Sequence record: NC_017487.1
From: a plasmid
DNA: 35,934 nucleotides
Reading direction: 5' to 3' (one strand)
Position 1 is the stretch's first letter, and each line of letters starts with the position of its first letter. Of the stretch, positions 197 to 28,879 are shown piece by piece. The notes below the pieces were generated by a model, which did no database searches, was not told where the DNA came from, and was given only the letters and a program-made list of their open reading frames with translations. The translations under genes were made by a program, and so were the position numbers.

Positions 197-274
197 ATGT
201 GGAGAAAAAACTGTTTATATATGGAGAAAAAACTGTTTATATATGGAGAAAAAACTGTTTATACATGGAGAATG
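197..274 (+). repeat. three and a half tandem 22-bp iterons (atatggagaaaaaactgtttat)
   Basis: Direct tandem repeats at 197-218, 219-240 and 241-262, with a partial copy at 263-274. Confidence 0.9.
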
Positions 275-306
275 TCTATTATCTTCTCCATGTATTATGG
301 TATAAT
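264..306 (+). promoter_or_regulatory. inverted repeat catggagaa...ttctccatg (264-291) overlapping the putative repB promoter; -10 TATAAT at 301-306
   Basis: Perfect 9-bp arms right after the last partial iteron, followed by tggtataat. Resembles the RepB autoregulation operator of lactococcal theta plasmids. Confidence 0.55.
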
Positions 307-380
307 AAAAGCATGAAGAAACACTTTTCGTCGAGAGAATCTTCATGCGTATCTAAAAACACTCAAAGGAGCGTATTTCT

Positions 381-1532
381 ATGTCTAGTATACCAAAAAA
401 TGAACAAAATCAGAAGCAGGTGCAAATCTTGAACGAATTATCAAAACGAAAAGTAGTGGAGCATAATTCTTTAATTACCAGCATTGCCAAAATGGATAAA
501 ACCCCACTCAAAATGTTTGAGTTAGCCGTATCGTGCATTGATACCGAAGAACCGCCTAAAGATCATACAGTCTATCTCTCAAAAGAAGAACTTTTTACGT
601 TTTTTAAAGTTTCTGATAATGACAAACATAGTCGTTTCAAGCAGGCAGTTGAGAATATGCAGAAACAAGCTTTTTTCAAAATTAAAGAAAAAAAAGAACA
701 TGGGTTTGAGTTTGAAAATATCGTCCCTATTCCCTATGTAAAGTGGACCGATTATCATGATGAAGTTACTATTCGATTTAGTCCTGAAATCATGCCTTAT
801 CTAATCAATCTTAAAAAGAATTTCACACAACATGCCTTGTCCGATATTTCAGAACTCAATAGTAAACATTCTATCATCTTGTATCGTTGGTTATCCATGA
901 ATTATAACCAATACGAGCATTATAGTTATAAGGGTGGACGGAGAGAAGAACAAGTGGAAGCCTACCGCAATCCTTCAATTTCAATCCGAGAATTACGAGA
1001 AATGACGGATATAGTCAATGAATATAAACTTTTTGCAGATTTAGAAAAATGGATATTAAAAAAACCTTTGGAAGAAATCAATGATCATACTTCTTTTACC
1101 GTGACGTATGACAAAGTCAAAAAGGGGCGCTCGATTGATTCTATCGTCTTTCATATTACGAAAAAACGTCGAGCAGACGATAACAGCTACAAGTTGGAAG
1201 ATAAAGTCTACCAAGAAGATAAAGCACGTAAAGCAGAAACCGAAGACATGCTGACGGTACAAGCCCTAAAAAGTCCGTATACCAAGCTGCTTATGGAACA
1301 TTTCTTATTGTCTTATCTAGACTTGACGGATACTAAAATTCTTTCAGGCTTACAAGCACACGTGTACCCTCTCTATGACGAACTGAAAGACTTACGAGGG
1401 TTGAATGGGGTCAAAGACCACTTGTCTTATGTGAGAGCCAAGCGAGAAGACTACTCAAAGAAAAATATCACTAAGTATCTCAAAAAAGCAATCGAGCAAT
1501 ACCTACCCACGGTTAAAAGGCAGGACTTATGA
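381..1532 (+). CDS. repB: replication initiator RepB (Rep_3 family, lactococcal theta-plasmid type)
   Basis: 383-aa ORF, RBS aaaggag upstream, lies directly downstream of the iterons. Length and sequence character match lactococcal RepB. Confidence 0.9.
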   Translation: MSSIPKNEQNQKQVQILNELSKRKVVEHNSLITSIAKMDKTPLKMFELAVSCIDTEEPPKDHTVYLSKEELFTFFKVSDNDKHSRFKQAVENMQKQAFFKIKEKKEHGFEFENIVPIPYVKWTDYHDEVTIRFSPEIMPYLINLKKNFTQHALSDISELNSKHSIILYRWLSMNYNQYEHYSYKGGRREEQVEAYRNPSISIRELREMTDIVNEYKLFADLEKWILKKPLEEINDHTSFTVTYDKVKKGRSIDSIVFHITKKRRADDNSYKLEDKVYQEDKARKAETEDMLTVQALKSPYTKLLMEHFLLSYLDLTDTKILSGLQAHVYPLYDELKDLRGLNGVKDHLSYVRAKREDYSKKNITKYLKKAIEQYLPTVKRQDL

Positions 1533-2122
1533 TGAGTGAAAAGTTAAAGACAATCAAAGAGCTTGCGGATGAAATAGGTGTTTCAAAGCAAGCTGTATGG
1601 CAAAAAATAAAAAAAGAATCGTCAATAGATTTACGTCAATTTACGTCAAAAAAAGGAAATACCGTTTACGTTGACGTTGATGGTCAAAAAGTTATTAAGA
1701 ATGCTTTTTTTAACAAAACGTCAACTAAAAAACGTCAACAAAAAGTTTTTGTTGACGACAACGTGAATAATTCAGTTGATGACAATCCAGAGGGGAATGA
1801 AGAGATTTTATTTTTAAGGAATCTAGTGTCCGAACTCCAATCAGAAAAAAAAGACCTTCATAAGCTATTAGACCAGCAACAACGCCTAGCTTTGCAGGAT
1901 AAAAAATTGCTAGAAGAATATAAATCAGAAATCAATGAATTGAAAGCTCTTAAAATGCCTCAGGAGGATATGAAAGATGGCTCGTCTATAAGGGGTGAGG
2001 CGCAGGAAGAAATTGAACGACTGAAAGCTCAATTGAAGTTATCAGAAGAAGAACAAAACAAGGCAAAAGAAAAAGAGCCGGTAAAAACAGAATCTAAAAA
2101 ATGGTGGCAACTATGGAAATGA
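1529..2122 (+). CDS. repX: replication-associated protein RepX/OrfX-like (DUF536-like): N-terminal HTH, coiled coil, C-terminal KKWWQLWK
   Basis: Start overlaps the repB stop (ATGA). HTH-like N-terminus ELADEIGVSKQAVWQKI. Conserved LLDQQQRLALQDKKLLEEYK segment is shared with the ORF at 21144-21737. Confidence 0.7.
   Translation: MMSEKLKTIKELADEIGVSKQAVWQKIKKESSIDLRQFTSKKGNTVYVDVDGQKVIKNAFFNKTSTKKRQQKVFVDDNVNNSVDDNPEGNEEILFLRNLVSELQSEKKDLHKLLDQQQRLALQDKKLLEEYKSEINELKALKMPQEDMKDGSSIRGEAQEEIERLKAQLKLSEEEQNKAKEKEPVKTESKKWWQLWK
1630..1766 (+). repeat. cluster of at least six CGTCAA/TTGACG hexamers (including tandem tttacgtcaa x2) embedded in the repX coding sequence
   Basis: tttacgtcaa at 1630-1639 and 1640-1649. 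tttacgttgacgttga at 1665-1680. aacgtcaact at 1717-1726. aacgtcaaca at 1731-1740. ttgttgacgacaacgtg at 1750-1766. Confidence 0.8.
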
Positions 2123-2132
2123 GGGGGATCAA

Positions 2133-5100
2133 ATGAGTCATTCGGAACAAATGATTGAAAACCAGTTCATACAGATCTTAAGTGAGAAAGAAAATCAATG
2201 GACTTATCGTCCGGACTTGAAGTCGGAAGAAGCACTTTGGCAAAACTTTAGAGGTCATTTGAACCGAATTAATTTAGCAGTATTGGAAGAGCAACTATTA
2301 ACGGACAAAGAATTTAAGCAAGTCAAAGTCGAGTTTTCACGTTTGACCGGAACGCCTTTTTTAGCTTCTCAATGGCTTAGAGGAGAAAACGGGGTGGCTC
2401 AAGTTTTATTAGAGCGAGAAGATGGGAAAAAAGTGACTTTAGAAGCCTTTAGAAATAAGGATATCTCAGGAGGAACTTCTTCTTATGAGGTAGTTCACCA
2501 AGTGGTCCCAGATTCCTCTAGAGTAGATCGTGGAGATGTGAGCTTGCTGATTAATGGGCTCCCAATCATTCATATTGAGCTCAAAAAAGAGTCCGCTAAA
2601 GACGGTTTCATGCAAGCTTATTATCAAATTCAGCGTTATGCAGAAGATGGATTTTTTAAAGGGATTTACGCAACTACTCAAATCATGGTGATTTCAAATA
2701 AAGTCGATACCCGATACTTTGCAAGACCTAGTGAAGATACCGCTGAAGCCTATGCTCGGATGAAGAAGTTTTTATTTAATTGGCGGACTGAAGACAATCA
2801 AACGGTTTCCGATTTGTTTGATTTTACTCGTACAGTTTTGCGGATACCCGATGCCCATGAATTGATTAGCCAATATACCATTCTCGTCGATGATCAAAAA
2901 AATCAAAAATTCCTCATGGCTTTAAGACCTTACCAAATTCATGCTATTCGTAAGATTCGTCAAAAAGCGGCACAGCATGAAGGAGGATTTATTTGGCATG
3001 CGACAGGTTCAGGAAAGACCATTACCAGTTTTGTCGCAACGAAATTATTAGCACAAAATGCGATCGGTGTTGATCGTACGGTCATGGTTGTTGATAGAAC
3101 AGACTTAGATGCTCAAACGCAGGATGAGTTTACGAAGTTTGCCTCGGAATATCATACCGGACAAACGACCGGAAATTCGGTAGCCAATACTTTGATTGTT
3201 GGGATCAAAAATCAAAAACAGTTGGCTCGAAACCTCCTATCATCAAAAAATAATAATACGATTTTAGTGACCACGATTCAAAAACTCTCTGCGGCTATGC
3301 GAAGTGCCCAACAAGAGAGTGAAGAAAAAGGCTCGAATCAATTTGAGAAGCTACGGCAAGAACATCTTGTTTTTATTGTTGATGAGGCTCATCGTGCGGT
3401 TAGTGATGAGGAAATGAAGCGAATTAAGAAAATATTACCCAATTCAACCTGGTTTGGATTAACGGGGACGCCTATTTTTGAAGAAAATAAAAAGCAAGAA
3501 AATGGAACCTTTGCCAGAACGACGAGCCAGCAATACGGGCCACTCCTTCACTCCTATACAACCAAAAATGCCATGGATGATGGGGCTGTGTTAGGCTTTC
3601 AAGTCGAGTATCATTCACTGATTTCAGAAGAGGATCAAGAGGTGATTGTCACCCAACTCAATAAAGGAAAGTTGCCAGACGATGCCCTCCAACAAGAAAA
3701 ATTATTGCCTACGGAACTGTATGAAGCAGATGAACATATTCGTACCATGTTACAAAAAATCTTTAATCGGAGAAGTGTGGTCAAAAAGTTCAAGGTAAAG
3801 AATGGTTTTCCTACGATGTCAGCCATTCTTACCACTCACTCGATTGCCCAAGCCAAACATATTTACCGGATTTTAAAGGAAATGAAAGATAATGGGACAC
3901 TCTTGAATGGGCGACAATTTGATGAACGTCATCAACTGATTGATAAAGATTTCCCAAGAGTAGCTATTACCTTCTCAACCAATCCGGATCAATTAGAAAA
4001 AAATGAACAAGACGATGAATTAGTAGAGATCATGAAAGAGTATGCGAAACAGTTTGATGCCTCTCCTTATCAAGATGAGAAACTCTACAATCAAAATATT
4101 AATAAACGGTTGGCCCGTAAGGAAAAGCAATATCAATCGGAGGGTCAGTGGCTAGATTTTGTTATTGTTGTCGATCGTTTATTGACAGGCTTTGATTCTC
4201 CAACGATTCAAACCTTATATATTGATCGAGAAATGAACTATCAAAAGCTCCTTCAAGCGTTCTCAAGAACGAATCGTATTTATACGGGCAAAGATTCTGG
4301 TTTGATTGTCTCTTTTAGAAAGCCCTTCACCATGAAAGAAAATGTGAAAAACACGTTTCGTCTATTCTCAAATGAAAAGCAAAACTTTGATCAACTGATT
4401 CCAAAAGAATATGAAGAAGTCAAAAAAGAATTTATCGAATGTTCAACACTTTATAAACAAAGCGAAGCCGACCTATCGGATAATCCCAATGATCTTAAAA
4501 CGATGATTGCGCAAGTGAGTGCTTATCAAAAGCTAGAAAAGAGTTATAAAGCGCTCCGAAGCTATGATCAATACGAAGAGGACTTTGAAGCATTTTCAGA
4601 AGTAGTGGAGCAGTTGCCACAATATCAAGGAAAAACAGAAAATATTAAAACAAAGATTAAAGAAATGATCGAGGATGAGGAGCATCCTGAGGAGGACTTC
4701 GAGAAGCTTTTACAAGAGATTGCTTTTTCTTCGCAGCTCAATGCGACACATAAAGACGTCGTGGATAGTTTTTATATTAATCAACTTTTGAAAGCGATCC
4801 AATTAAACGAAGCAGGGGCCGTTGAAAAATTTGAAAAAGAAATCCAACAAAAGGATCCTCAAATCCAAAAGATGTATCACACCTTGAAAGATCAACTCGT
4901 CAATACTACTGAAGAGATCGATGTGGCTCAATTAAAAGAGACTTCGATTCAAAATGAAATTCAAAGACAACTTCAAAAAGAAGCTGAAGAATTTGGATTA
5001 TCCTTCGACTTTTTACAGTCTGCAATGAATGAATATCAAGGCGATAAGAAAACGATCCCTTATTTAACCCATTTACTGGATTCGATGACTCTTAGTAAAG

Positions 5101-5210
5101 AAGAGTTCGAAGCCAAAACGGGTGAAAAATACAGAAGAAGAACAAAAGTTTTAGAAGAACGACTACAACAAAACTTTGAACATCTTCAAAAATGGAAAGA
5201 AGAATTATAA
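2133..5210 (+). CDS. hsdR: type I restriction enzyme R subunit HsdR (SF2 helicase/ATPase motifs)
   Basis: 1025-aa ORF with an ATGSGKT Walker A and a DEAH-like VDEAHR motif. Upstream of the M and S genes. Its stop overlaps the hsdM start (TAATG). Confidence 0.92.
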   Translation: MSHSEQMIENQFIQILSEKENQWTYRPDLKSEEALWQNFRGHLNRINLAVLEEQLLTDKEFKQVKVEFSRLTGTPFLASQWLRGENGVAQVLLEREDGKKVTLEAFRNKDISGGTSSYEVVHQVVPDSSRVDRGDVSLLINGLPIIHIELKKESAKDGFMQAYYQIQRYAEDGFFKGIYATTQIMVISNKVDTRYFARPSEDTAEAYARMKKFLFNWRTEDNQTVSDLFDFTRTVLRIPDAHELISQYTILVDDQKNQKFLMALRPYQIHAIRKIRQKAAQHEGGFIWHATGSGKTITSFVATKLLAQNAIGVDRTVMVVDRTDLDAQTQDEFTKFASEYHTGQTTGNSVANTLIVGIKNQKQLARNLLSSKNNNTILVTTIQKLSAAMRSAQQESEEKGSNQFEKLRQEHLVFIVDEAHRAVSDEEMKRIKKILPNSTWFGLTGTPIFEENKKQENGTFARTTSQQYGPLLHSYTTKNAMDDGAVLGFQVEYHSLISEEDQEVIVTQLNKGKLPDDALQQEKLLPTELYEADEHIRTMLQKIFNRRSVVKKFKVKNGFPTMSAILTTHSIAQAKHIYRILKEMKDNGTLLNGRQFDERHQLIDKDFPRVAITFSTNPDQLEKNEQDDELVEIMKEYAKQFDASPYQDEKLYNQNINKRLARKEKQYQSEGQWLDFVIVVDRLLTGFDSPTIQTLYIDREMNYQKLLQAFSRTNRIYTGKDSGLIVSFRKPFTMKENVKNTFRLFSNEKQNFDQLIPKEYEEVKKEFIECSTLYKQSEADLSDNPNDLKTMIAQVSAYQKLEKSYKALRSYDQYEEDFEAFSEVVEQLPQYQGKTENIKTKIKEMIEDEEHPEEDFEKLLQEIAFSSQLNATHKDVVDSFYINQLLKAIQLNEAGAVEKFEKEIQQKDPQIQKMYHTLKDQLVNTTEEIDVAQLKETSIQNEIQRQLQKEAEEFGLSFDFLQSAMNEYQGDKKTIPYLTHLLDSMTLSKEEFEAKTGEKYRRRTKVLEERLQQNFEHLQKWKEEL

Positions 5211-6805
5211 TGGCAACAGGTTTAAATCAACAACTATGGGCTTCTGCGGATATCTTACGTGGGAAGATGGATGCAAGTGAGTACAAAAACTACTTACTGG
5301 GATTAATTTTCTATAAGTACTTGTCTGATGCGCAGCTTAGAGAAGTTTATGAACAAGAAAATGGAAAAACAGATACCTTCCCAGAACGTTCCACTCAGTA
5401 TGCAGGATTCATGGAGTGGTACGAAGAAGACAAAGACGATTTAATCGAAAATATCCAACCCAAACAAGGCTACTTTATCCAACCCGATCAATTGTTTTAT
5501 CACTACCGCATCAAAGCTGATAACTATGAATTTAACTTGACCGACTTACAAGCAGGTTTTAATGAGTTGGAACGTCAAGGAGAAGAATTTAGTGGATTGT
5601 TTGCGGATATTGATTTAAACTCCACAAAATTAGGCTCAAATGCACAACAACGTAATGTGACGATTACTGAGGTTTTACGTGCCTTAGATGAGATTGACTT
5701 ATTTGAACACAATGGCGATGTCATTGGAGATGCTTATGAGTATTTAATCGGGATGTTTGCGGCAGGTGCAGGTAAAAAAGCAGGAGAGTTTTATACCCCT
5801 CAAGCTGTTTCACGCATCATGTCAGAAATTACGTCGATCGGACAAGAATCTCGAGCGCCTTTTCATATTTACGACCCTGCGATGGGTTCAGGTTCTTTGA
5901 TGCTTAATATCCGTCGCTATCTCATCAACCCAAATCAAGTCCATTATCATGGCCAAGAGCTAAATACGACGACCTTTAACTTAGCGCGTATGAACTTAAT
6001 CCTTCATGGAGTAGATAAAGAACGCATGAACCTGAATAACGGGGACACTTTAGACGCCGATTGGCCGTCAGAAGAGCCTTATCAGTTTGATTCTGTGGTC
6101 ATGAACCCTCCTTACTCTGCGAAATGGTCAGCGGCAGATAAGTTTCTCTCTGACCCTCGTTTTGAGCGTTTTGGAAAATTAGCGCCTAAATCTAAAGCGG
6201 ACTTTGCCTTTCTCCTTCACGGTTTTTACCATTTGAAAGAATCGGGAACAATGGGGATTGTCCTGCCTCATGGCGTGCTCTTTAGAGGAGCCGCAGAAGG
6301 AACCATCCGTCAAGCTCTTTTAGAGATGGGAGCTATTGATGCAGTCATTGGCTTGCCGGCCAATATCTTTTTTGGAACCAGTATTCCGACAACGGTTATT
6401 ATTTTGAAGAAAAACCGCTCTCGTCGCGATGTCTTGTTTATCGATGCTTCTCAAGATTTTGAAAAACAAAAAAATCAAAATGTCCTGTTGGATGAACATA
6501 TTGATAAAATTGTTTCTACCTACAAAAAGCGAGAAGATATTGAAAGATATGCTCATGTTGCAAGTTTTGATGAGATCCAAGAAAATGACTTTAACTTAAA
6601 TATCCCTCGTTATGTCGATACCTTTGAGGAAGAGGAACCGGTTGATTTGGTTGCAGTAAATACCAATCTCCTTAAGATCAATGAAGAATTAGTTCAACAA
6701 GAGCAAGTGCTCTTATCGTTGATTGACAATTTTTCAGAAAGTGAAGAGAATCAAGCCTTGATTGAATCGATGCGTCTTCTTTTGAGAGGCGGTCATGATG
6801 AGTAA
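5210..6805 (+). CDS. hsdM: type I restriction-modification N6-adenine methyltransferase HsdM
   Basis: NPPY motif (VMNPPYS) and SAM-binding DPAMGSGS. The ATG at 5210 shares its A with the hsdR TAA, which fits better than the longer ORF starting at 5192. Confidence 0.92.
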   Translation: MATGLNQQLWASADILRGKMDASEYKNYLLGLIFYKYLSDAQLREVYEQENGKTDTFPERSTQYAGFMEWYEEDKDDLIENIQPKQGYFIQPDQLFYHYRIKADNYEFNLTDLQAGFNELERQGEEFSGLFADIDLNSTKLGSNAQQRNVTITEVLRALDEIDLFEHNGDVIGDAYEYLIGMFAAGAGKKAGEFYTPQAVSRIMSEITSIGQESRAPFHIYDPAMGSGSLMLNIRRYLINPNQVHYHGQELNTTTFNLARMNLILHGVDKERMNLNNGDTLDADWPSEEPYQFDSVVMNPPYSAKWSAADKFLSDPRFERFGKLAPKSKADFAFLLHGFYHLKESGTMGIVLPHGVLFRGAAEGTIRQALLEMGAIDAVIGLPANIFFGTSIPTTVIILKKNRSRRDVLFIDASQDFEKQKNQNVLLDEHIDKIVSTYKKREDIERYAHVASFDEIQENDFNLNIPRYVDTFEEEEPVDLVAVNTNLLKINEELVQQEQVLLSLIDNFSESEENQALIESMRLLLRGGHDE

Positions 6806-7991
6806 AAAAAGTCCACAATTAAGGTTTGAAGGTTTTACGGATGATTGGGAAGAACGTAAGTTAGGGGAATTAGGTTCTGTAGCGATGAATAGAAGGATTT
6901 TCAAAGATCAAACTTCAGAAAACGAAGAAGTCCCATTTTTTAAAATCGGTACTTTTGGAAGCAAACCAGATGCTTTTATCTCTCGTGAATTGTTTGAAGA
7001 ATATAAATTGAAATATCCATATCCAGAAATAGGGGATATTTTAATATCTGCTTCTGGAAGCATAGGTAGAACTGTTGTATATCAAGGGAAAGATGAATAT
7101 TTTCAAGATAGCAATATAGTTTGGTTAAAGCATGATGATCGCTTGAATAATAAGTTTTTAAAGCAGTTTTATTCGATTGTTAAGTGGCAAGGATTAGAAG
7201 GAAGTACGATTAAACGGCTATATAATAAAAACATTTTAGATACAGATATTAGTATCCCTAGTACCATTGAACAAAATAAGATAGGGATGTTCTTTGAACA
7301 ATTAGACGACACTATCGCTCTTCATCAGCGTAAGTTAGATTTGTTGAAAGAACAGAAAAAAGGATACTTACAAAAAATGTTCCCCAAAAATGGGGAAAAA
7401 GTTCCTGAATTGCGATTTGCGGGGTTTGCTGACGATTGGGAAGAGCATAAGTTGGGTGATTATATCATTCAGTATAGTGAAAAAACTAAACAGAATAATC
7501 AATATCCTGTTTTCACCTCCTCTAGGAATGGATTATTTTTTCAGAAGGATTACTATAAAGGGAATCAAATTGCATCCGAAGACAATATCGGATATAACAT
7601 TGTTCCCAGGGGATACTTCACATATAGGCATATGTCAGATGATCTTGTTTTTAAATTTAATATAAACGATCTAGCTGACTATGGCATTGTTAGTACTTTA
7701 TATCCTGTTTTCACCACAAATGAGCAATTAAACTCTAAATATTTACAATATCAGTTGAACGAAGGATCTGAATTTAGACGTTTTTCTCTTTTGCAAAAAC
7801 AAGGTGGTTCTCGAACATATATGTATTTAAATAAATTACAAAATATGATTTTAAATATTCCAAAATTAGAAGAGCAACAAAAAATAGGCTCATTCTTCCA
7901 ACAATTAGATGAAACTATCGCTCTTCATCAACGTAAGTTAGATTTGTTGAAAGAACAGAAAAAAGGCTTTTTACAAAAGATGTTTGTTTAG
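6795..7991 (+). CDS. hsdS: type I specificity subunit HsdS with two target-recognition domains
   Basis: 398 aa. Duplicated conserved segments LDDTIALHQRKLDLLKEQKKGYLQKMFP and LDETIALHQRKLDLLKEQKKGFLQKMFV. Start overlaps the hsdM end. Confidence 0.9.
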   Translation: MMSKKSPQLRFEGFTDDWEERKLGELGSVAMNRRIFKDQTSENEEVPFFKIGTFGSKPDAFISRELFEEYKLKYPYPEIGDILISASGSIGRTVVYQGKDEYFQDSNIVWLKHDDRLNNKFLKQFYSIVKWQGLEGSTIKRLYNKNILDTDISIPSTIEQNKIGMFFEQLDDTIALHQRKLDLLKEQKKGYLQKMFPKNGEKVPELRFAGFADDWEEHKLGDYIIQYSEKTKQNNQYPVFTSSRNGLFFQKDYYKGNQIASEDNIGYNIVPRGYFTYRHMSDDLVFKFNINDLADYGIVSTLYPVFTTNEQLNSKYLQYQLNEGSEFRRFSLLQKQGGSRTYMYLNKLQNMILNIPKLEEQQKIGSFFQQLDETIALHQRKLDLLKEQKKGFLQKMFV

Positions 7992-9494: not shown

Positions 9495-9761
9495 AAAAAC
9501 GTGAAGTATCTGAACAATTTAATAGAACAAGATCATAGGCCAATTAAGCGACGGAATAAATTTTATCGAAGTCTCCGGACTGCCTCATCCACGATTAGGG
9601 GGATGGAGACCATTCAAGGAATATATAAAAAGAACCGAAGAAATGGAACACTCTTCGGCTTTTCAGTTTCTACTGAAATCAAAATATTAATGGGAATACC
9701 TGCTTAGATTGACGGTTGGTCAGAGATAGTGTTTTTGAGTTGCAGACTTTGCAACAGAACC
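9495..9761 (+). mobile_element. IS6-family (IS1216/ISS1-like) 3'-terminal fragment with terminal inverted repeat
   Basis: ORF 9489-9707 encodes the transposase C-terminus (...NLIEQDHRPIKRRNKFY...GFSVSTEIKILMGIPA). Ends in the IR ...ctttgcaacagaacc at 9761. Confidence 0.8.
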
Positions 9762-13257: not shown

Positions 13258-14066
13258 GGTTCTGTTGCAAAGTTTTCCAAAAAATCTATTTTAGTGTAAA
13301 ATTGAGAAAAAAGACAGAGAGGACAGAGTAATGAATCATTTTAAAGGCAAACAATTCAAAAAATGACGTCATTATTGTCGCTGTTGGTTACTACCTGCGT
13401 TACAATCTAAGCTATCGTGAAGTTCAGGAATTGTTATATGATCGTGGAATAAATGTTTGTCATACTACGATTTATCGTTGGGTGCAAGATTACAGCAAAG
13501 TCCTCTATTATCTTTGGAAGAAGCAAAATAGACAATCCTTCTATTCATGGAAAATGGACGAAACCTATATCAAAATTAAGGGACGTTGGCATTATCTTTA
13601 TCGTGCAATTGATGCGGACGGCTTAACCTTAGATATCTGGTTACGAAAGAAACGGGATACGCAAGCAGCCTATGCTTTCTTAAAACGACTCCATAAACAG
13701 TTTGGTGAGCCGAAAGCAATTGTGACCGATAAAGCACCTTCTCTTGGCTCCGCCTTTAGAAAGTTACAGAGTGTGGGTTTATATCCTAAGACAGAGCACC
13801 GAACTGTGAAGTATCTTAACAATTTAATAGAACAAGACCATCGACCTATTAAACGACGGAATAAATTTTATCAAAGTCTCCGTACAGCCTCTTCCACGAT
13901 TAAGGGCATGGAGACCCTTCGAGGAATATATAAAAAGAACCGAAGAAATGGAATGCTCTTCGGCTTTGCGGTGTCTACTGAAATCAAGGTATTAATGGGA
14001 ATACCAGCCTAAGATATTTGGAGTTCAGAGAGGGCGAGTTTGATTTTCAAACTTCGCAACAGAACC
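13258..14066 (+). mobile_element. IS6-family element (IS1216/ISS1-like), 809 bp, copy A, transposase frameshifted
   Basis: Left IR ggttctgttgcaaagtttt at 13258. Right end ...cttcgcaacagaacc at 14066. The tnp ATG is at 13331, but an extra T (caaaaaatgacgtc versus caaaaaagacgtc in copy B) gives MNHFKGKQFKK*. The rest is ORF 13431-14012. Confidence 0.85.
13331..14012 (+). pseudogene. IS6-family transposase with a 1-bp insertion frameshift
   Basis: Compared with the copy at 18291-18941. Confidence 0.8.
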
Positions 14067-15857: not shown

Positions 15858-15955
15858 GGTTCTGTTGCAAAGTTTTCCAAAAAATCTATTTTAGTGTAAA
15901 ATTGGGAAAAAAGACAGAGAGAACAAAGTAATGAATCATTTTAAAGGCAAACAAT
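15858..15955 (+). mobile_element. IS6-family 5' fragment: left IR plus the first nine transposase codons
   Basis: ggttctgttgcaaagttttcc... then atgaatcattttaaaggcaaacaat. Homology ends at 15955. Confidence 0.8.
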
Positions 15956-16258
15956 CCTGAAAAGTATCAGTATGATAAAAGTGAAGTTGTTGCTCATAAT
16001 GGTTTTAGATATCGTCAATATTTAACAGACGTTGGTGTAGATACAGATGTTATTCTGCAAGAAATAGTACAATGGATTCGTGAATCTAATTGTTATGAAT
16101 ATGGCGACTTGGTTGATTATGCTGTATCTGAAAAGTTTGATGAATGGTTTCCTACTGTTAGAAGTCAGACGATCTTTTTAACTGCTTATTTACGTTCTAA
16201 TCGGCATAAGCCTTTTAAAAAAATAGATAGAGAAACTGGAGAAAAATTTGTATTTTGA
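15956..16258 (+). pseudogene. 5'-truncated gene fragment (about 100 codons, no start codon), unknown function
   Basis: The frame is open from the IS6 junction to the TGA at 16256-16258 (...EVVAHNGFRYRQYLTDVGVDTDV...) and contains no Met. Confidence 0.4.
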
Positions 16259-16331
16259 AAGGTTTCATAAGACAGTTGATAAATTATGGAGTGACTATTC
16301 AGTATAAAATTTGAATAGGGAGTTAATAAAA

Positions 16332-16742
16332 ATGACAATAAATTTCAGTATAAGTAAAGATATCGATATTAAGCAATTAGAAGAATTATATAATGACGTT
16401 GGTTGGAGTGCGTATACTCAAGATTTGGAAGTATTAAAGCAAGCTATATTACAATCGTTAGATGTTATAACTGTTTGGAATGACGATAAATTAGTAGGGC
16501 TTATTAGGGCTATTGGAGACGGATTAACGATTGTGTATATACAAGATATACTTGTTTTGAATGCTTATCAGAATAAGGGTATTGCAAGTGAATTATTGCA
16601 AAGAATATTAAATAAATACAAAAATGTTCGTCAAAAAGTTCTTTTAACTGAAGAAGCTTCTGGTGTTAGATATTTTTATGAAAAGAATGGTTTCGAATCC
16701 TGTGATCAGGGATTGTTAGTTGCGTTTGCTAAAATGAACTAA
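16332..16742 (+). CDS. GNAT-family N-acetyltransferase
   Basis: 137 aa with acetyl-CoA binding-like motif QNKGIASELLQRIL. RBS agggag before the ATG at 16332. Confidence 0.75.
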   Translation: MTINFSISKDIDIKQLEELYNDVGWSAYTQDLEVLKQAILQSLDVITVWNDDKLVGLIRAIGDGLTIVYIQDILVLNAYQNKGIASELLQRILNKYKNVRQKVLLTEEASGVRYFYEKNGFESCDQGLLVAFAKMN

Positions 16743-16754
16743 ATTGTGATCTTG

Positions 16755-16779
16755 AGAGTGGCTTAGCCACTCTTTTTTT
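16755..16779 (+). terminator. rho-independent terminator agagtggc-tta-gccactct plus T7
   Basis: Hairpin directly after the GNAT stop, followed by ttttttt. Confidence 0.75.
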
Positions 16780-16947
16780 GTTTTGGCTTTATTGAACGAA
16801 AAAAATTGATAAATTTTTGAGTGAATTATCGCCCATTTTTTGGGCGGATTTTTTTGTGATTGGCACAAAAAAAGGTGTTTTTTGACACGAAGTGTCAATT
16901 TTTGCGCTAGCAAAAACAAGCCTCGCAGAGCCCACACTTTACCATGT

Positions 16948-17072
16948 GAAGAAAAGGAACGCTCTTCGGCTTTTCGGTGTCTACTGAACTCAATGTATTA
17001 ATGGAAATACCAGCCTAAGATATTTGGAGTTCAGAGAGGGCGCGTTTGATTTTCAAACTTCGCAACAGAACC
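16948..17072 (+). mobile_element. IS6-family 3'-terminal fragment (about 125 bp) with right IR
   Basis: ...ggaacgctcttcggcttttcggtgtctactgaactcaatgtattaatgg... ends cgcaacagaacc at 17072. Confidence 0.75.
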
Positions 17073-17076
17073 TTTC

Positions 17077-17490
17077 ATGCTCTCAGCATTATTTTCTAGC
17101 TTTGCAAATTTTTTTGAAACAAGTTATATTGTAGTTAAAAAAACTACAGGAGGATTTATCACATTTTTATTTGGAGCAATCGTTTGTGTCATTGCACAAG
17201 TATTACTTATTCCATTATTTGGCTTGAATGGTGCTGGATTAGCTTCAATGCTTGGATTCTTAACAACGTTTTTATTTCGTGTCAAGGATACGCAAAAATT
17301 TGTGGTGATTCAGATTAAATGGCGAACTTTTATAAGTAATTTTGTGATCATTTTGGTACAAATTCTTTGTTTATTTTATCTGCCGAGTAAAGTCTTGTAT
17401 CTATGCCTTGCCCTATTATTTTGTGGCATGTTAGTGGTTAATCAGCGTACAATTTTATACATTATCATGGCGCTAAAAAATAAAAAATAA
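17077..17490 (+). pseudogene. C-terminal fragment of a polytopic membrane protein, possibly a MOP/Wzx-type polysaccharide flippase
   Basis: 137-aa hydrophobic ORF that begins immediately at the IS6 end. Flippase assignment is a weak pattern guess. Confidence 0.35.
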
Positions 17491-18206: not shown

Positions 18207-19014
18207 GGTTCTGTTGCGAAGTTTGAAAATCAAACGCGCCCTCTCTGAACTCCAAATATCTTAGGCTGTTATTCCCATTAATACCTTGATTTAAGTAGAC
18301 ACCGAAAAGCCGAAGAGCGTTCCATTTCTTCGGTTCTTTTTATATATTCCTCGAAGGGTCTCCATGCCCTTAATCGTGGAAGAGGCTGTACGGAGACTTT
18401 GATAAAATTTATTCCGTCGTTTAATAGGTCGATGGTCTTGTTCTATTAAATTGTTAAGATACTTCGCAGTTCGGTGCTCTGTCTTAGGATATAAACCCAC
18501 ACTCTGTAACTTTCTAAAGACGGAGCCAAGAGAAGGTGCTTTATCGGTCACAATTGCTTTCGGCTCACCAAACTGTTTATGGAGTCGTTTTAAGAAAGCA
18601 TAGGCTGCTTGCGTATCCCGTTTCTTTCGTAACCAGATATCTAAGGTTAAGCCGTCCGCATCAATTGCACGATAAAGATAATGCCAACGTCCCTTAATTT
18701 TGATATAGGTTTCGTCCATTTTCCATGAATAGAAGGATTGTCTATTTTGCTTCTTCCAAAGATAATAGAGGACTTTGCTGTACCCTTGCACCCAACGATA
18801 AATCGTAGTATGACAAACATTTATTCCACGATCATATAACAATTCCTGAACTTCACGATAGCTTAGATTGTAACGCAGGTAGTAACCAACAGCGACAATA
18901 ATGACGTCTTTTTTGAATTGTTTGCCTTTAAAATGATTCATTACTCTGTCCTCTCTGTCTTTTTTCTCAATTTTACACTAAAATAGATTTTTTGGAAAAC
19001 TTTGCAACAGAACC
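18207..19014 (-). mobile_element. IS6-family element (IS1216/ISS1-like), 808 bp, copy B, inverted relative to copy A
   Basis: IRs ggttctgttgcgaagttt (18207) and ggaaaactttgcaacagaacc (ending 19014). Transposase ORF 18291-18941. Confidence 0.88.
18291..18941 (-). CDS. IS6-family transposase, 216 aa, shortened by about 10 aa by a premature stop (GAA to TAA)
   Basis: Full N-terminus MNHFKGKQFKKDVIIVAVGYY.... Ends ...GFSVST*. Other copies continue EIKVLMGIPA. Confidence 0.85.
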   Translation of the reverse strand: MNHFKGKQFKKDVIIVAVGYYLRYNLSYREVQELLYDRGINVCHTTIYRWVQGYSKVLYYLWKKQNRQSFYSWKMDETYIKIKGRWHYLYRAIDADGLTLDIWLRKKRDTQAAYAFLKRLHKQFGEPKAIVTDKAPSLGSVFRKLQSVGLYPKTEHRTAKYLNNLIEQDHRPIKRRNKFYQSLRTASSTIKGMETLRGIYKKNRRNGTLFGFSVST

Positions 19015-23546: not shown

Positions 23547-23575
23547 GATTTTTTGGAAAACTTTGCAACAGAACC
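23547..23575 (-). mobile_element. 29-bp remnant of an IS6 left end
   Basis: gattttttggaaaactttgcaacagaacc matches 18986-19014. Confidence 0.7.
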
Positions 23576-23577
23576 GT

Positions 23578-23667
23578 TTAACCTTAGATATTTGGTTACG
23601 AAAGAAACGGGATATGCAAGCAGCCTATGTTTTCTTAAAAAGTATTCATAAACAGTTTGGTCAACAT
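23578..23667 (+). mobile_element. internal IS6-family transposase fragment (LTLDIWLRKKRD...HKQFG), upstream half of the Tn3-family insertion target
   Basis: Homology to the IS6 tnp. Ends at the 5-bp AACAT next to the Tn3-family IR. Confidence 0.8.
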
Positions 23668-23786
23668 GGCCCAGCGTACACATAACCCCCTAAAATCCAT
23701 ATAAGAGATTATATTATTGATTTATCGGTCTTTTTCTATCACTGAATCTTAGTAAAAAGCCTATCATTTTAAAAATGATAGGCTTT

Positions 23787-26705
23787 TTACTTACCTTGAT
23801 TTAATTCGCGAAGTTCTTCGGGTAAAGTAGTTAAATCAATTTTATATTCTCCTAACAAATTAATGTGTCTCCAAATTATAGGAGACGTATACTCTAAATA
23901 CTTCGTTATTTCTGGTTCGCTATTTTTACAATAGTTATACGCTTGTTGCAAATATACAGTATTCCAAAGGCTTATCGCATTAATCAGGATATTCAAAGCA
24001 CTTGCACTTTGAAGTTGCTTTTCAAAATCCTTCTCCATAAACTTTCCTCTCTGACCATTAAATAACTCCCTGGCTAAATCATTAATAAGTTCTCCACGAT
24101 TTAGCATTTGTGTGATTACTTTTCGTAAATCTTCATTAATCGCATACTCCAACAAAAAAATAGTTTTCTCAATTTTTCCCAGTTCGCTCAATGCCTGGGC
24201 GACTTTATTTTTTCGAGCATAAGAACCAAGCTTATTTAAAATTATTTTAGCGCTAGTTTTTCTTGTTTGAATGGAATAAGCGATTTGTTTAATTTCATCG
24301 TAATGCTTTTCTATTAAGTTTAAATTGACAGCGCGCTTAATTAGAGGTTGCATTTTTTTATACTGATCAGGAGATTTTATTGTATATAAGTTCATTGAAC
24401 CAATATCTCTAATTCGTGGTTCAAATTTGAATCCTAACAAGTGGAATAACGCGAATGCGGTGTCAGTATAAGCATTTGTATCAGAAAAATGTTCTTCAAT
24501 ATTTAATTCCGTATCATGTCCAATGGCACCATCAATAGCACTAGCAGCTTCTCGTTGATTTGTTGCGATCACTTCGACATAATGCGAAATATATTTATCT
24601 GCAGTATGACGATAGATAGTTGTCCCTTTTTTATTTCCATAATGAGGATTGAAATCCGAATGAATAGACGAAACTCCTAGCTGCATACGAAGACCATCTG
24701 AGGAAGCCTTTGATCCATCACCCCAAAATTCACTAAAAGGACAAGTAATCTGCTTATTAATTAATACTGACTGTGCTCGTTTGAAAGACTCAGGAGACAT
24801 ACGCCATTGTTTAGCATTTGCCATTTGAGCGGAAGTAATATGCGTAGATTTTCCCATATCTTGAAAGCGAATGTTTAAGCCCATAGCCATTAATGTAGAA
24901 AATAATACTTCTAATTCCTCTTTATTTGCTGAGTCTTTGGTGGCCTCATGAATAAATTCGTCCATAAACCCCGTCCAGTTATTGACTTCAATAAGTAATT
25001 CGACAAGATTTACATCTGGTAACAGTTTGTACAATGATTTTTTGTAATATTCAGCTTCTTCAGGAGTATTTTTTTCTTTTTTAGTAATAGTAAGTCTATC
25101 AAACGATTTTCCAAGTTTCTGATAAGCTTCTAGTCGTTCTTCTAAAACTTCAATTCTCGACGATAAATATTCTTTAAAAGTATCTGGAATTGTATGCGAT
25201 CCCATCATGGCGTCTGAACTCACAAGATAATTATCTAATTCCTGGTGTAAGACGCTTTGAGGCTCGATAACTTCTCCTGATCGAAGTCGATCATTTAATT
25301 CAGTAGCAGCAACTAATTCAAAATAAGAACGATCAATTGTCCCATCTGGGTTTTTGACGAGAGATTGCCATGGCTTTTTAACAAAATTTAATTCAATATC
25401 TACAGGTATTTTCCGTTTGTTTTCTTTCTTCAATACAGTAATTAATCTGAGCGCATTAATTAAACCATCATCATCCATTCTAGGTGATTTAAAATCAAGT
25501 GTTTCTACTAGTCTTGGTAAGTATCCTCGAATATATTGAGCTTTATACTGTACTAAACCCATATAAGTTCTCTTTCTGGGACTAGCAATTAGAGCTGCTT
25601 GTTGTCCTTCTTCAATCAGCTCGTTCCAATCGAATGATTGTTTTAATTGGCGGGCTAAGTTTTGAAAATCATTATTACAAATTGCGTGATCCAGCATACT
25701 AACAACCTGAGAAAAGTGCTTTAACATGCGGTTAGATTGCTCGCCCGTTTTTTTATTTTCTTCGTTTTTCTTGTGTAACCCACTTCGTTTAATTGATTGT
25801 ACAATTTTATTATGTACTTCAATTGCCAAATCAATTAGAGCTTTTCTATAACGAATTAAATAAACTACAAGCAAAGCATATCTTTTTGTTTCTTCAAATC
25901 TGCGTAGGTCAAAAGCATGATATCGTTCTGTTAATCTTGCTATCTGACTTAATCTCTTCTCATTGGTAAACGAAAATGTTAACTGCTCCAGTTTCAACTC
26001 TTTAATAACCGATATCCGGTCGCAAATTGATAGAATGGTATCTTTACTTGGTTTTCCACTAATATCTTGCAACCAGGCTAGTTTAGATTTTTTGGTATCC
26101 AAATTTACTACTAGTAAGCTATCTAATTGTTCCTTTTGATTCTCAGACAAAAGTTCAATTATTTTTTTGTAGAGATATTTTTCGTGATTCTGTCGAATAG
26201 TTGAAATCAAACGTTCGATCTCTGAAAGTTCTGGAAGTAAGATATGTTGTTCTCTTAATCGATAAATAGCTAAATTAATTAGAAAAAGTTCATCATTATT
26301 TTCTTGTATCGCTTCATTTAGAATATTTTTCAAATAATCCGATGCTTTTGAAGAATATAGGGAATAATTATAGTGTCTGCAAATTTTCTTTAAATGCACT
26401 AAGGGGGTATTTTTCTTACTTAAATAGTTATCTAAGTCTATAGTTGATATCTTTAGTTGGTCAGCAACGTACTCAACTAAAGATTTTGATACTTTATCAA
26501 CCGAATTTAAAGAAATTCCTGGATATCGAGCAAGACACAACTGCAGACCGATTCCTAATCTGTTTTCAACACCTCTGTGAGAGAGAATAAACTTCACATC
26601 CGACCGTGAAAAGCTAAAATATCCCTGAAACTCATCCTTTGATAGTTTATCTAAAGATAATAATGCTTCTTGCTGTGCCGATGAAGTCAGTTTATATGCG
26701 CCCAA
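23787..26705 (-). CDS. tnpA: Tn3-family transposase TnpA (DUF4158 N-terminus plus DDE domain)
   Basis: 972 aa. TTG start with RBS aggagg. Size and sequence typical of Tn3-family TnpA. Confidence 0.9.
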   Translation of the reverse strand: MGAYKLTSSAQQEALLSLDKLSKDEFQGYFSFSRSDVKFILSHRGVENRLGIGLQLCLARYPGISLNSVDKVSKSLVEYVADQLKISTIDLDNYLSKKNTPLVHLKKICRHYNYSLYSSKASDYLKNILNEAIQENNDELFLINLAIYRLREQHILLPELSEIERLISTIRQNHEKYLYKKIIELLSENQKEQLDSLLVVNLDTKKSKLAWLQDISGKPSKDTILSICDRISVIKELKLEQLTFSFTNEKRLSQIARLTERYHAFDLRRFEETKRYALLVVYLIRYRKALIDLAIEVHNKIVQSIKRSGLHKKNEENKKTGEQSNRMLKHFSQVVSMLDHAICNNDFQNLARQLKQSFDWNELIEEGQQAALIASPRKRTYMGLVQYKAQYIRGYLPRLVETLDFKSPRMDDDGLINALRLITVLKKENKRKIPVDIELNFVKKPWQSLVKNPDGTIDRSYFELVAATELNDRLRSGEVIEPQSVLHQELDNYLVSSDAMMGSHTIPDTFKEYLSSRIEVLEERLEAYQKLGKSFDRLTITKKEKNTPEEAEYYKKSLYKLLPDVNLVELLIEVNNWTGFMDEFIHEATKDSANKEELEVLFSTLMAMGLNIRFQDMGKSTHITSAQMANAKQWRMSPESFKRAQSVLINKQITCPFSEFWGDGSKASSDGLRMQLGVSSIHSDFNPHYGNKKGTTIYRHTADKYISHYVEVIATNQREAASAIDGAIGHDTELNIEEHFSDTNAYTDTAFALFHLLGFKFEPRIRDIGSMNLYTIKSPDQYKKMQPLIKRAVNLNLIEKHYDEIKQIAYSIQTRKTSAKIILNKLGSYARKNKVAQALSELGKIEKTIFLLEYAINEDLRKVITQMLNRGELINDLARELFNGQRGKFMEKDFEKQLQSASALNILINAISLWNTVYLQQAYNYCKNSEPEITKYLEYTSPIIWRHINLLGEYKIDLTTLPEELRELNQGK

Positions 26706-26749
26706 ATATTAAGCCTCCTTATTGGTAAGGTGATAAAATGTTGTTTCCT

Positions 26750-27316
26750 TTACTTTTTATTTTGACCATACCTTTGTTTATATCTCACGATTGTTGACTT
26801 ATCCAATTCAAACAATCGAGCTGTTTCTGTATACGTATGAACTCTTAAGTAGTCCAGTATTTCTTTAATCTGTTGCGTTGTTTTCTTTGGTTTTCGACCA
26901 TCTCGATAATTTGGGTTATGTTGTCTTTGATATTCTCTACCTTCTTGGGTTCTTTGAACAATCATATCTCGTTCAAATTGCGCAAAGGCTAAAAACATAT
27001 TCAACATAAGGCTACCGTTGGGGGTCCTATCAATTCTTCCCATATTAAGAATATTTACAACAACATCCTTTTCTTGTAGCTCTGAAATTAATTCTGTTCC
27101 TTGCTGGACAGAACGCGAAAGTCTATCTAGTTTTGCGACAATTAATTCATCACCTTCTGAAAGAATAGAAAGCAATTCATCGAGTTTGGGGCGGTCACGT
27201 TTTGTTCCTGTGTATTTTTCACTATAAATTTTTTCTGCCCCAGCATTCTTTAACTGTTCTAATTGATTCGCTAAATCTTGCTCATTTGTTGAAACCCTTG
27301 CATAACCATATTTCAT
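26750..27316 (-). CDS. tnpR: serine resolvase TnpR
   Basis: MKYGYARVSTNEQDL... catalytic Ser motif, C-terminal HTH. Confidence 0.9.
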   Translation of the reverse strand: MKYGYARVSTNEQDLANQLEQLKNAGAEKIYSEKYTGTKRDRPKLDELLSILSEGDELIVAKLDRLSRSVQQGTELISELQEKDVVVNILNMGRIDRTPNGSLMLNMFLAFAQFERDMIVQRTQEGREYQRQHNPNYRDGRKPKKTTQQIKEILDYLRVHTYTETARLFELDKSTIVRYKQRYGQNKK

Positions 27317-27822
27317 TGTACTTCACCTAGTTTTAAGATATCTTCTAATTTATTGTAATCTACAGTCTTACAAGATAAATCTATAAAATAATCCAGTTGC
27401 CATTGTTGTGTTTTTTCAGCTGTTTTATTTAAACTTTGTTCCCATAAAGGATAAACTCGTATTGCCATTTTTCCTTTAACTTGAGATGTTCTTAATATTT
27501 TTTGCTTTAATAACTCTGACTTCGGAAATACAAATAGTCCTTTGTGTTCATTATCAAACACATTAACAATTAAAAAATCAGGACTGTTTTTATAATCAAA
27601 TGCTTTATTTTTATTGTTATTATCTTTCTCCCAGAAAACAACGAAATATCCCTTTTTAGTCGGTGTTTTCTTAGCAAGTCTATTACGAAAACTATATTGA
27701 TTAATGCTAAAAGAAAAACTCTCATACTCACTATTTTGATGTTCTTCCTGATAATTATCAAAAGTACCCTTTAAAAACGGAATAAGCGTATTCTGTAATA
27801 GCTCCCCTGACTTTTTCATCAT
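27313..27822 (-). CDS. hypothetical 169-aa protein, passenger gene of the Tn3-family element (possibly MepB-like, uncertain)
   Basis: ORF whose start overlaps the stop of the upstream HTH gene and whose stop overlaps the tnpR start. No family confidently recognised. Confidence 0.55.
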   Translation of the reverse strand: MMKKSGELLQNTLIPFLKGTFDNYQEEHQNSEYESFSFSINQYSFRNRLAKKTPTKKGYFVVFWEKDNNNKNKAFDYKNSPDFLIVNVFDNEHKGLFVFPKSELLKQKILRTSQVKGKMAIRVYPLWEQSLNKTAEKTQQWQLDYFIDLSCKTVDYNKLEDILKLGEVQ

Positions 27823-28010
27823 TAAAATTTCTCCAATCTTGAATTACCTTCATTATCAAACCAAAGGCTTTTAAAACGTTTGATCGTATTCCACTGATAA
27901 CCCGTAGACTTAGCTATTCGTTTAAGACTCAATCCGTCAAGCATATATTCATATGCTAAAGTTTCTCTACTGTTTAAATCTTTTCGACTAAGATACTCTT
28001 TTTTTACCAT
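27822..28010 (-). CDS. small HTH DNA-binding protein (62 aa), first gene of the transposon operon
   Basis: ATG at 28010 with RBS aaggag. HTH-like LSLKRIAKSTGYQWNTIKRF. The longer 94-aa ORF (28106) lacks an RBS. Confidence 0.5.
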   Translation of the reverse strand: MVKKEYLSRKDLNSRETLAYEYMLDGLSLKRIAKSTGYQWNTIKRFKSLWFDNEGNSRLEKF

Positions 28011-28106
28011 ATTTCGCTCCTTTGATTCGCATATAATATTTGCACATCCACATGAGTTGATTTTATCACAATTTAATATCATATGCAAAACTGTTAAGTT
28101 ATGCAT

Positions 28107-28252
28107 ACATATGAGTTTGTTTAATAAGATATTCTATAAACTCAAATGTGCGAAGAAACTAAAAAAGCCCTAAACGAGCGTTTATGAGGCTTACAAAGAA
28201 TAGAAATATTGTTTGTTTATGGATTATATAACAAAAAATAAAGTTCAAATCT
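28107..28252 (-). promoter_or_regulatory. putative res site and promoter region of the Tn3-family element
   Basis: Only sizeable noncoding segment inside the element, upstream of the HTH-orf169-tnpR-tnpA operon. Contains short repeats (tatgca/atgcata). Confidence 0.3.
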
Positions 28253-28290
28253 CTTATATGGATTTTAGGGGGTTATGTGTACGCTGGGCC

Positions 28291-28750
28291 AACATAGAGT
28301 CATCGTAACAGATAAAGCACCTTCTCTTGGCTCCGCCTTTAGAAAGTTACAGAGTGTGGGTTTATATACTAAGACAGAGCACCGAACTGTGAAGTATCTT
28401 AACAATTTAATAGAACAAGACCATCGACCTATTAAACGACGAAATAAATTTTATCAAAGTCTCCGTACAGCCTCTTCCACGATTAAGGGCATGGAGATCA
28501 TTCGAGGAATATATAAAAAGAACATAGAGTCATCGTAACAGATAAAGCACCTTCTCTTGGCTCCGCCTTTAGAAAGTTACAGAGTGTGGGTTTATATACT
28601 AAGACAGAGCACCGAACTGTGAAGTATCTTAACAATTTAATAGAACAAGACCATCGACCTATTAAACGACGAAATAAATTTTATCAAAGTCTCCGTACAG
28701 CCTCTTCCACGATTAAGGGCATGGAGATCATTCGAGGAATATATAAAAAG
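28291..28750 (+). repeat. tandem duplication of about 230 bp x2 (28291-28520 and 28521-28750)
   Basis: aacatagagtcatcgtaacag...atataaaaag appears twice in tandem. The first copy starts at the Tn3 end/TSD junction. Confidence 0.85.
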
Positions 28751-28879
28751 AACCGAAGAAATGGAACGCTCTTCGGCTTTTCGGTGTCTACTGAAATCAA
28801 GGTATTAATGGGAATAACAGCCTAAGATATTTGGAGTTCAGAGAGGGGGCGTTTGATTTTCAAACTTCGCAACAGAACC
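28291..28879 (+). mobile_element. IS6-family 3' fragment (downstream half of the Tn3 insertion target) with an internal 230-bp tandem duplication and right IR
   Basis: Resumes the IS6 tnp at ...(Q)HRVIVTDKAPSLG.... Ends cttcgcaacagaacc at 28879. ORFs 28275-28538 and 28586-28825 are the duplicated tnp 3' part. Confidence 0.85.

Follow-up and report, generated by a model that had tools for sequence, protein, structure and literature searches.

What separates the two parts of an IS6 transposase remnant on a plasmid of Lactococcus lactis, and does the tandem repeat beside the intervening DNA belong to the same event? The window, i.e. the whole stretch of DNA analysed, comprises 35,934 bp with a GC content of 34.54% and by these two values is plasmid pCV56B, for which the same figures (35,934 bp, 34.54% GC) have been published (PMC6458302); its sister plasmids are pCV56A and pCV56C. 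A sequence-only reading of the locus had proposed a Tn3-family transposon with perfect inverted repeats and a 5-bp target duplication, brought by genuine transposition into an IS6 copy that was itself rearranged. The explanation that we favour, and consider very probable, is a 4,623-bp Tn3-family transposon inserted in the 3' remnant of an ISS1-type element of this L. lactis plasmid, next to a 230-bp duplication that is most likely not biological; for transposition and resolution, it draws on analogy with related systems.

Ends and gene content of the element

Measured between the outer edges of its inverted repeats (IRs), the element spans 4,623 bp, with AACAT on either side (Table 1). The two 38-bp IRs are identical at 38/38 positions and AACAT flanks both, in agreement with the sequence-only reading; no further match to the 38-bp IR with up to three mismatches was found within the window, nor in 100 shuffles. 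Perfect complementarity extends 5 bp inward beyond the 38, to a total of 43 bp, and the 44-nt arms obtained in the repeat search consist of these 43 bp and one flanking base that matches by coincidence. The inner end of the IR is TAAG and its tip GGCCC rather than GGGG, the usual tip in the Tn3 family. As a relative on a plasmid of L. lactis LB7 likewise begins with GGCC, we regard this tip as a sub-lineage variant.

Table 1. Features of the transposon and its target in the window
Feature	Position	Strand	Basis or remark
29-bp inverted IS6 left end	23547..23575	-	exact reverse complement of IS bp 1-29
IS6 (ISS1-type) transposase remnant, left part	23578..23667	+	IS bp 366 to ~455
Target-site duplication AACAT, left copy	23663..23667	+	single in empty site of other plasmids
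IR-L, terminal inverted repeat at tnpA end	23668..23705	+	GGCCCAGCGTACACATAACCCCCTAAAATCCATATAAG; 38/38 vs IR-R
Perfect 20-bp hairpin over tnpA stop; likely bidirectional terminator	23751..23791	.	inverted repeat; putative function
tnpA, 972-aa Tn3-family transposase	23787..26705	-	PF01526, PF13700, NF033527, Tn4430 TnpA
tnpR, 188-aa serine resolvase (YARVS, Ser9)	26750..27316	-	PF00239 E=6e-40
MepB-like passenger, 169 aa	27313..27822	-	PF08877 E=3e-48; PDB 4lqe MepB E=3e-36
62-aa passenger or regulatory ORF (orf62)	27822..28010	-	WP_003130770 in RefSeq copies
Non-coding region	28011..28252	-	promoter-like site 28089-28060; hairpin + T-run 28190-28161; presumed res
IR-R, terminal inverted repeat at resolvase/passenger end	28253..28290	-	38/38 vs IR-L
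Target-site duplication AACAT, right copy	28291..28295	+	directly past IR-R
230-bp x2 perfect tandem duplication	28291..28753	+	begins at first base past IR-R; probable artefact
IS6 remnant, right part, including duplicated 230-bp unit	28291..28879	+	IS right end at 28862-28879

The gene order is IR - promoter/res region - orf62 - mepB-like - tnpR - tnpA - IR. The proposed Tn3-family assignment was borne out by Pfam, NCBIfam and Tn4430 TnpA matches: the tnpA product matches DDE_Tnp_Tn3 (PF01526) over model positions 1-389 of 389 (E=3e-127), has an N-terminal PF13700 domain (DUF4158), scores 747 bits with NCBIfam NF033527 (cutoff 500 bits), and was aligned with Tn4430 TnpA at E=1.4e-229 (element TnpA vs Tn4430 TnpA, residues 1-957 vs 1-966). 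Its DDE triad is intact, with D670, D742 and E872 aligned to D679, D751 and E881, the catalytic triad of Tn4430 TnpA (PMC9579193). The tnpR product retains the catalytic Ser9 and matches the Tn3 and gamma-delta resolvases with E ~1e-20; this serine resolvase (PF00239) is the sole recombinase, as no tyrosine recombinase ORF was found within 23668-28290. The stop codon of the mepB-like gene overlaps the tnpR start. The ATG of orf62 is preceded by GGAG, an alternative start at 28106, giving 94 aa, being less likely, and profile searches with orf62 returned sub-threshold HTH hints only (E ~0.1).

Judged by the architecture of the family, res probably lies in 28011-28252, between IR-R and orf62. 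A convincing three-subsite res pattern was not found in this region, where a promoter-like site and short repeats were seen. In an alignment with the LB7 relative, conservation of the non-coding region is limited to the IR, the hairpin near it, whose stem bases have changed, and a CCATA(T)AA motif in subterminal position. In other plasmids, solo IR-R fragments of 205 bp have a common inner breakpoint at window position 28086. As a candidate crossover site this position was rejected: the nearest inverted repeat (TCATATG...CATATGA, 28114-28079) has it at its margin rather than in its middle, and the break is therefore no evidence of a crossover site.

Insertion into an ISS1-type remnant

The translated flanks read ...LDIWLRKKRDMQAAYVFLKSIHKQFGQH on the left and (Q)HRVIVTDKAPSLG... 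on the right of the element, and at the DNA level both align with bp 366-809 of a full-length IS6 copy at 13258-14066 with ~95% identity. This copy is 809 bp long, has GGTTCTGTTGCAAAGTTT ends and contains a DDE_Tnp_IS240 ORF (PF13610, E=1e-42). The flanks are contiguous IS6 sequence, and the element did land in an IS6 copy, as had been read from the sequence. Of the IS6-family features, the target presents the match to bp 366-809 and the terminus at 28862-28879; compared with ISS1 and IS6, it retains only the 3' 444 bp, behind the 29-bp inverted left end. Both this inverted end and the truncation are found with 100% identity in transposon-free plasmids and are therefore ancestral to the insertion. 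To this extent the IS6 copy is rearranged as the sequence-only reading had stated; the 230-bp duplication, which it had counted as a further IS6 rearrangement, is absent from every related plasmid backbone. The remnant is non-functional and older than the transposon insertion; the element thus entered an IS6 fragment that was dead beforehand, and no function was lost.

The empty site was reconstructed by taking out the element together with a single AACAT and a single 230-bp unit. At least 16 other Lactococcus plasmids match the resulting sequence with 100% identity over 496 nt and accordingly contain the uninterrupted IS6 variant that the earlier reading had suggested seeking in related plasmids, and left-flank matches in 46 plasmids end exactly at 23667. 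An empty site that is intact over 496 nt in this many plasmids shows that the insertion is real; together with the AACAT duplication we read it as the bona fide Tn3-family transposition event that had been postulated.

Following the family mechanism, TnpA would nick the 3' ends of the element and join them at AACAT to phosphates of the target with a 5-bp stagger. In the replication by the host that follows, the element would be copied and the gaps filled, giving rise to the 5-bp duplication and a cointegrate, which the resolvase would separate at res, probably between IR-R and orf62.

The 230-bp duplication beside IR-R

The segment 28291-28520 is repeated with 100% identity at 28521-28750, with AAC recurring at 28751-28753. 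A 168-bp x2 duplication is found in pCV56C, where it starts exactly at IR-R and lengthens a VirB4-like CDS relative to the FDAARGOS_1064 copy; the same plasmid of FDAARGOS_1064 is without it. In pCV56A, a 205-bp x2 duplication (17,057-17,476), far from the transposon and absent from an independent assembly, has its copies parted by AATCACTAGT, which we take to be insert-flanking sequence of the pGEM-T/pGEM-T Easy vectors. This vector match is indirectly corroborated by primers in a published study (PMC3101654). Because the pCV56A and pCV56C duplications are absent in independent assemblies and a vector-like 10-mer stands at the pCV56A junction, the 230-bp duplication is most likely a gap-closure or assembly artefact of this record. 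The contig would have broken where the three-copy repeat ends, and the gap would have been closed by a PCR/Sanger read with untrimmed overlap. No vector bases are seen at the 230-bp junction itself, and its 3-bp microhomology, AAC, is also what a real microhomology-mediated duplication would show. FDAARGOS_1064 may also be a different strain from CV56, in which case its missing 168-bp and 205-bp duplications may be real polymorphisms.

We consider it unlikely that the 230-bp duplication and the 168-bp duplication of pCV56C are real and were caused by the transposon end. Under this explanation, TnpA would nick the 3' end at IR-R. Repair of the nick, or of a replication fork collapsing there, could proceed through strand displacement, a template switch or joining by microhomology to a point 170-230 bp downstream, and would duplicate the flank from the nick onwards. 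Two independent duplications would then start right after IR-R because this is the TnpA cleavage position, and it is indeed improbable that a random duplication boundary would coincide to the base with the end of the element; but assemblies, too, break precisely at repeat ends, both cases stem from one 2011 assembly project, and a flank duplication was found in 0/16 copies from other assemblies (Fisher p=0.018), with a pCV56C-type plasmid in another assembly also lacking it. The AAC microhomology at the window junction fits such a repair, whereas the pCV56C junction has none, and the similar-size pCV56A duplication with its vector-like 10-mer lies far from the transposon. That the duplications adjacent to IR-R (230 bp, 168 bp) are real and record an undescribed side-reaction of a Tn3-family transposase, by which a 3'-end nick leads to tandem duplication of the adjoining target DNA, we hold to be quite improbable.

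The probable finishing errors in the CV56 assembly bear on the insertion as well: misassembly might have put a collapsed three-copy transposon in the wrong replicon, pCV56B truly having an empty site. That the strain carries the element on three of its plasmids would accord with this, as would the finding of this junction in no other record searched. A misjoin would not, however, yield a correct 5-bp duplication at a contiguous site, and AACAT at both junctions, with flanks exactly contiguous in the empty site, therefore makes this explanation scarcely credible. We thus retain a real insertion next to a duplication that is most likely artefactual, and note that the 230-bp, 168-bp and 205-bp duplications in the plasmid records of CV56 probably arose as finishing errors.

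Distribution and relationship to known transposons

The same element was found at 99.8% identity or more in at least 30 plasmids and in many contexts, and identical copies reside on three plasmids of the single strain CV56. The IRs are perfect in 18/18 copies examined (the one in the window and 17 others, with identical IR), so the constancy of the IRs across independent copies was confirmed, and seven sites have perfect 5-bp AT-rich target duplications (AACAT, ATATC, GTAAA, TAAAA, AAATA, TTTTA and TATAA). These data bear out the recent activity proposed by the sequence-only reading and support an apparently recently active, otherwise ordinary element. Interrupted loci include conjugation genes (VirB4, coupling protein), a pilin gene and others. 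Flanks have been exchanged among copies, which recombination of one copy with another, either homologous or at res, would bring about. The identical copies within one strain and the exchanged flanks lend indirect support to replicative transposition through a cointegrate. The copy in NZ_PP589769.1 occupies the near-identical coordinates 23667-28289 by chance, with different flanks. The right junction of the window, GTGTACGCTGGGCCAACATAGAGTCATCG, had no match elsewhere in public genome, viral and metagenome contigs; unmatched in these three collections, this insertion therefore has no independent copy there.

A published name for the element was not found in the literature searched, which took in a survey of Tn3 toxin-antitoxin systems, the pan-plasmidome of L. 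lactis and a paper on conjugation of pNP40, and database records annotate it merely gene by gene. By its sequence features we class it as an apparently unnamed Tn3-family transposon common on Lactococcus plasmids. For a small Tn3-family element that is widespread among Lactococcus plasmids of dairy and human origin, it is now defined where it ends, which target sequence it duplicates and which genes it contains. This is of modest practical value, and a new biological question would arise only if the flank duplications prove real.

The closest solved relative of the transposase is TnpA of Tn4430 from Bacillus thuringiensis, with a full-length alignment and a conserved DDE triad. Tn4430 has 38-bp terminal IRs with inner TAAG, 5-bp AT-rich target duplications and a similarly small size, and its cointegrates are resolved by the tyrosine recombinase TnpI at irs. 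In the element a serine resolvase is found instead of the TnpI/irs system; without a tyrosine recombinase, it is therefore not a variant of Tn4430 itself. It further differs in the IR tip, GGCCC and not GGGG, and in the MepB-like and orf62 passengers. Transposases of Bacillus plasmids are ~36-39% identical to its TnpA (tblastn), the proteobacterial members TnAs1, TnAs3 and ISPa38 ~31%.

With Tn3, gamma-delta (Tn1000) and the Tn21-type transposons, the element has the module of TnpA and serine resolvase in common, and in the Tn21/Tn501 group tnpR is likewise upstream of and co-directional with tnpA. Unlike in these, passengers are placed between the presumed res/promoter region and tnpR, to which they are translationally coupled, and there is no resistance gene. 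A minimal relative on the L. lactis LB7 plasmid NZ_CP117406.1 (3378-7229) has a tnpA that is 78% identical at the DNA level; tnpR and tnpA follow in the same order, and the hairpin beside the IR is conserved. Its IRs begin with GGCC and, further inward, have the AAATCCATATAA motif in common with those of the element, differing at about 10 of the 38 positions, and it is without the orf62 and mepB passengers, so that tnpR directly follows the non-coding region.

Insertion and target

Once the element (23668-28290) is deleted together with one copy each of AACAT and the 230-bp unit, an empty site of 496 nt remains, which at least 16 Lactococcus plasmids (e.g. CP034582.1, NC_015863.1) carry with 100% identity. 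The uninterrupted variant that the sequence-only reading had proposed to look for thus exists, and its claim of a bona fide transposition is borne out. With the left flank as query, 46 plasmids matched over at least 80% of its length, and in all 20 of these that were listed the match stops exactly at 23667; the insertion is real. The backbone belongs to a common L. lactis plasmid family.

Both ends (23668-23705, 28253-28290) read GGCCCAGCGTACACATAACCCCCTAAAATCCATATAAG and form perfect 38-bp inverted repeats with TAAG, each immediately abutted on the outside by AACAT, as had been claimed. Complementarity runs 5 bp further inward, and one base outside also pairs, by coincidence. Further matches to the repeat with at most 3 mismatches were found neither elsewhere in the window nor in 100 shuffles.

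The flanks, translating as ...KSIHKQFGQH and (Q)HRVIVTDKAPSLG..., correspond to bp 366-809 of an ISS1-type IS6 element (reference: the intact copy at 13258-14066, whose ORF matches PF13610), which confirms the proposed landing in an IS6 copy. Ahead of the target, at 23547-23575, IS bp 1-29 recur in inverted form without a mismatch. Remnant and inverted end are also present in transposon-free plasmids, and the arrangement is therefore older than the insertion. Of the rearrangements originally ascribed to the target, the inverted end stands, but predates the insertion; the 230-bp duplication is probably no rearrangement of the IS6 copy.

The plasmid is much remodelled by IS6 elements: two full-length ISS1-type copies lie in opposite orientations (13258-14066, 18207-19014), a pair of IS6 ends 1,215 bp apart (15858-17072) encloses no ORF of 150 aa or more, and a solo end is found at 9744-9761. 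Separately, a 22-bp unit (ATATATGGAGAAAAAACTGTTT) is repeated 3.5 times at 195-272, just upstream of a 383-aa ORF (381-1532). In related plasmids RepB initiators are annotated over this query range; the repeats resemble theta-replicon iterons.

The 230-bp duplication beside IR-R

The tandem unit starts at 28291, the first base after IR-R, with AAC once more after it, and was found in none of the related backbones compared. Among 17 further copies of the element, only that of pCV56C (NC_017484.1) has a comparable flank duplication, a perfect 168-bp tandem pair (6124-6459) starting exactly at IR-R and extending the annotated VirB4-like CDS by 168 nt. In the independent assembly FDAARGOS_1064, the pCV56C-type plasmid NZ_CP065985.1 is otherwise identical in this region, without the 168 bp. 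For pCV56B of L. lactis CV56, PMC6458302 gives the same size (35,934 bp) and GC content (34.54%) as the window has; with the window being pCV56B, the 230-bp and 168-bp cases therefore share one assembly project.

The sister plasmid pCV56A (NC_017483.1) differs from its FDAARGOS_1064 counterpart NZ_CP065987.1 mainly by a twofold 205-bp duplication (17057-17476), absent in the latter. Its copies are split by AATCACTAGT, the sequence that borders inserts in the vectors pGEM-T and pGEM-T Easy. Indirect corroboration comes from primers designed on a derivative of pGEM-T Easy (PMC3101654), and the stretch looks like residual vector. Small indels also occur in the transposon copy of pCV56A, immediately internal to IR-L.

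The ends of multi-copy repeats are where contigs break, and an untrimmed gap-closing read at such an end would leave exactly this pattern of flank duplication. Weighing these points, we consider the 230-bp duplication very probably an assembly artefact; that a nick at the transposon end, where the unit starts, gave rise to a genuine duplication appears improbable.

Genes and non-coding region

All genes of the 4,623-bp element are on the minus strand, and stop/start codon overlaps join orf62, the MepB-like gene and the resolvase gene, all upstream of tnpA.

Features of the element (window coordinates)
Feature	Position	Strand	Remarks
Hairpin + T-run	28190-28161		reads inward, just inside IR-R
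Promoter-like site	28089-28060		between IR-R and orf62
orf62 (62 aa)	28010-27822	-	HTH hints only, sub-threshold
MepB-like protein	27822-27313	-	PF08877 3e-48; PDB 4lqe 3e-36
Serine resolvase (tnpR)	27316-26750	-	PF00239 6e-40; YARVS Ser9; Tn3 and gamma-delta resolvases ~1e-20
Transposase (tnpA), 972 aa	26705-23787	-	PF01526, PF13700, NF033527, Tn4430 TnpA

In the transposase, PF01526 spans the whole model (3e-127), PF13700 lies at the N-terminus, and NF033527 (NCBIfam) scores 747 bits (cutoff 500 bits). Among solved relatives, Tn4430 TnpA is the nearest (E=1.4e-229 over the full length), and D670, D742 and E872 align with its catalytic triad D679/D751/E881 (PMC9579193). A perfect 20-bp hairpin overlaps the tnpA stop.

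We infer that res is located in the non-coding stretch between IR-R and orf62, within which mapping gave no defined site. The hairpin and T-run of this stretch are kept in a relative on the L. lactis LB7 plasmid NZ_CP117406.1 (~7085-7115), with stem bases differing between the two elements (GCCTCATAAACG/CGTTTAGGGC vs GGTACCATAAACG/CGTTTATGGTACC). Because the structure is kept with changed stem bases, it suggests a functional terminator, which may shield the element from outside transcription.

Distribution and relationship to known transposons

The whole element occurs at 99.8% identity or more in at least 30 PLSDB plasmids, nearly all from Lactococcus, in contexts including a VirB4-like gene, a coupling-protein gene, a SpaA pilin gene and spots beside IS6 and IS982 copies. 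The inverted repeats, checked across independent copies, are perfect in 18 of 18. Intact, AT-rich 5-bp duplications were found at seven sites (AACAT, ATATC, GTAAA, TAAAA, AAATA, TTTTA, TATAA); a matching duplication is absent in 11 of the 18 copies. Some of the unmatched flanks recur at different copies: L006 and L008 share the right flank, L009 and L017 the left, and the left flank of L010 is the reverse complement of the right flank of L012. Such sharing is expected if copies on plasmids in the same cell recombine, and points to recombination or inversion between them. The element had been called recent, and the spread and intact duplications agree; judged by them, it is recently active.

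A solo 205-bp IR-R end (28086-28290 in the window) with 13 shared bases (TCAAAAAATAGCT) is present in at least four plasmids. In pLG9 (NZ_KM007159.1) and NZ_CP087603.1 it lies at 1488-1705, with different flanks on both sides and an identical inner breakpoint; it may be the leftover of a deletion or a fragment that was mobilised.

No published name was found in the literature accessible to search, and RefSeq labels are generic only. A variant of Tn4430 was rejected because the recombinase is a serine resolvase. The LB7 relative (3378-7229 of its plasmid) has 78% tnpA identity, GGCC-tipped repeats and the order tnpR-tnpA, and is minimal, without orf62 and mepB; both genes are therefore passengers. 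It directly adjoins a second, different pair of resolvase and Tn3-family transposase (138-3395). With TnpA, DDE triad, 38-bp repeats with TAAG, 5-bp target duplication and resolvase gene, the element is by sequence a Tn3-family transposon, with a presumed res site and a presumed replicative mechanism. Within this well-known family it is new, or at least has no name yet, and it sits in a dead IS fragment.
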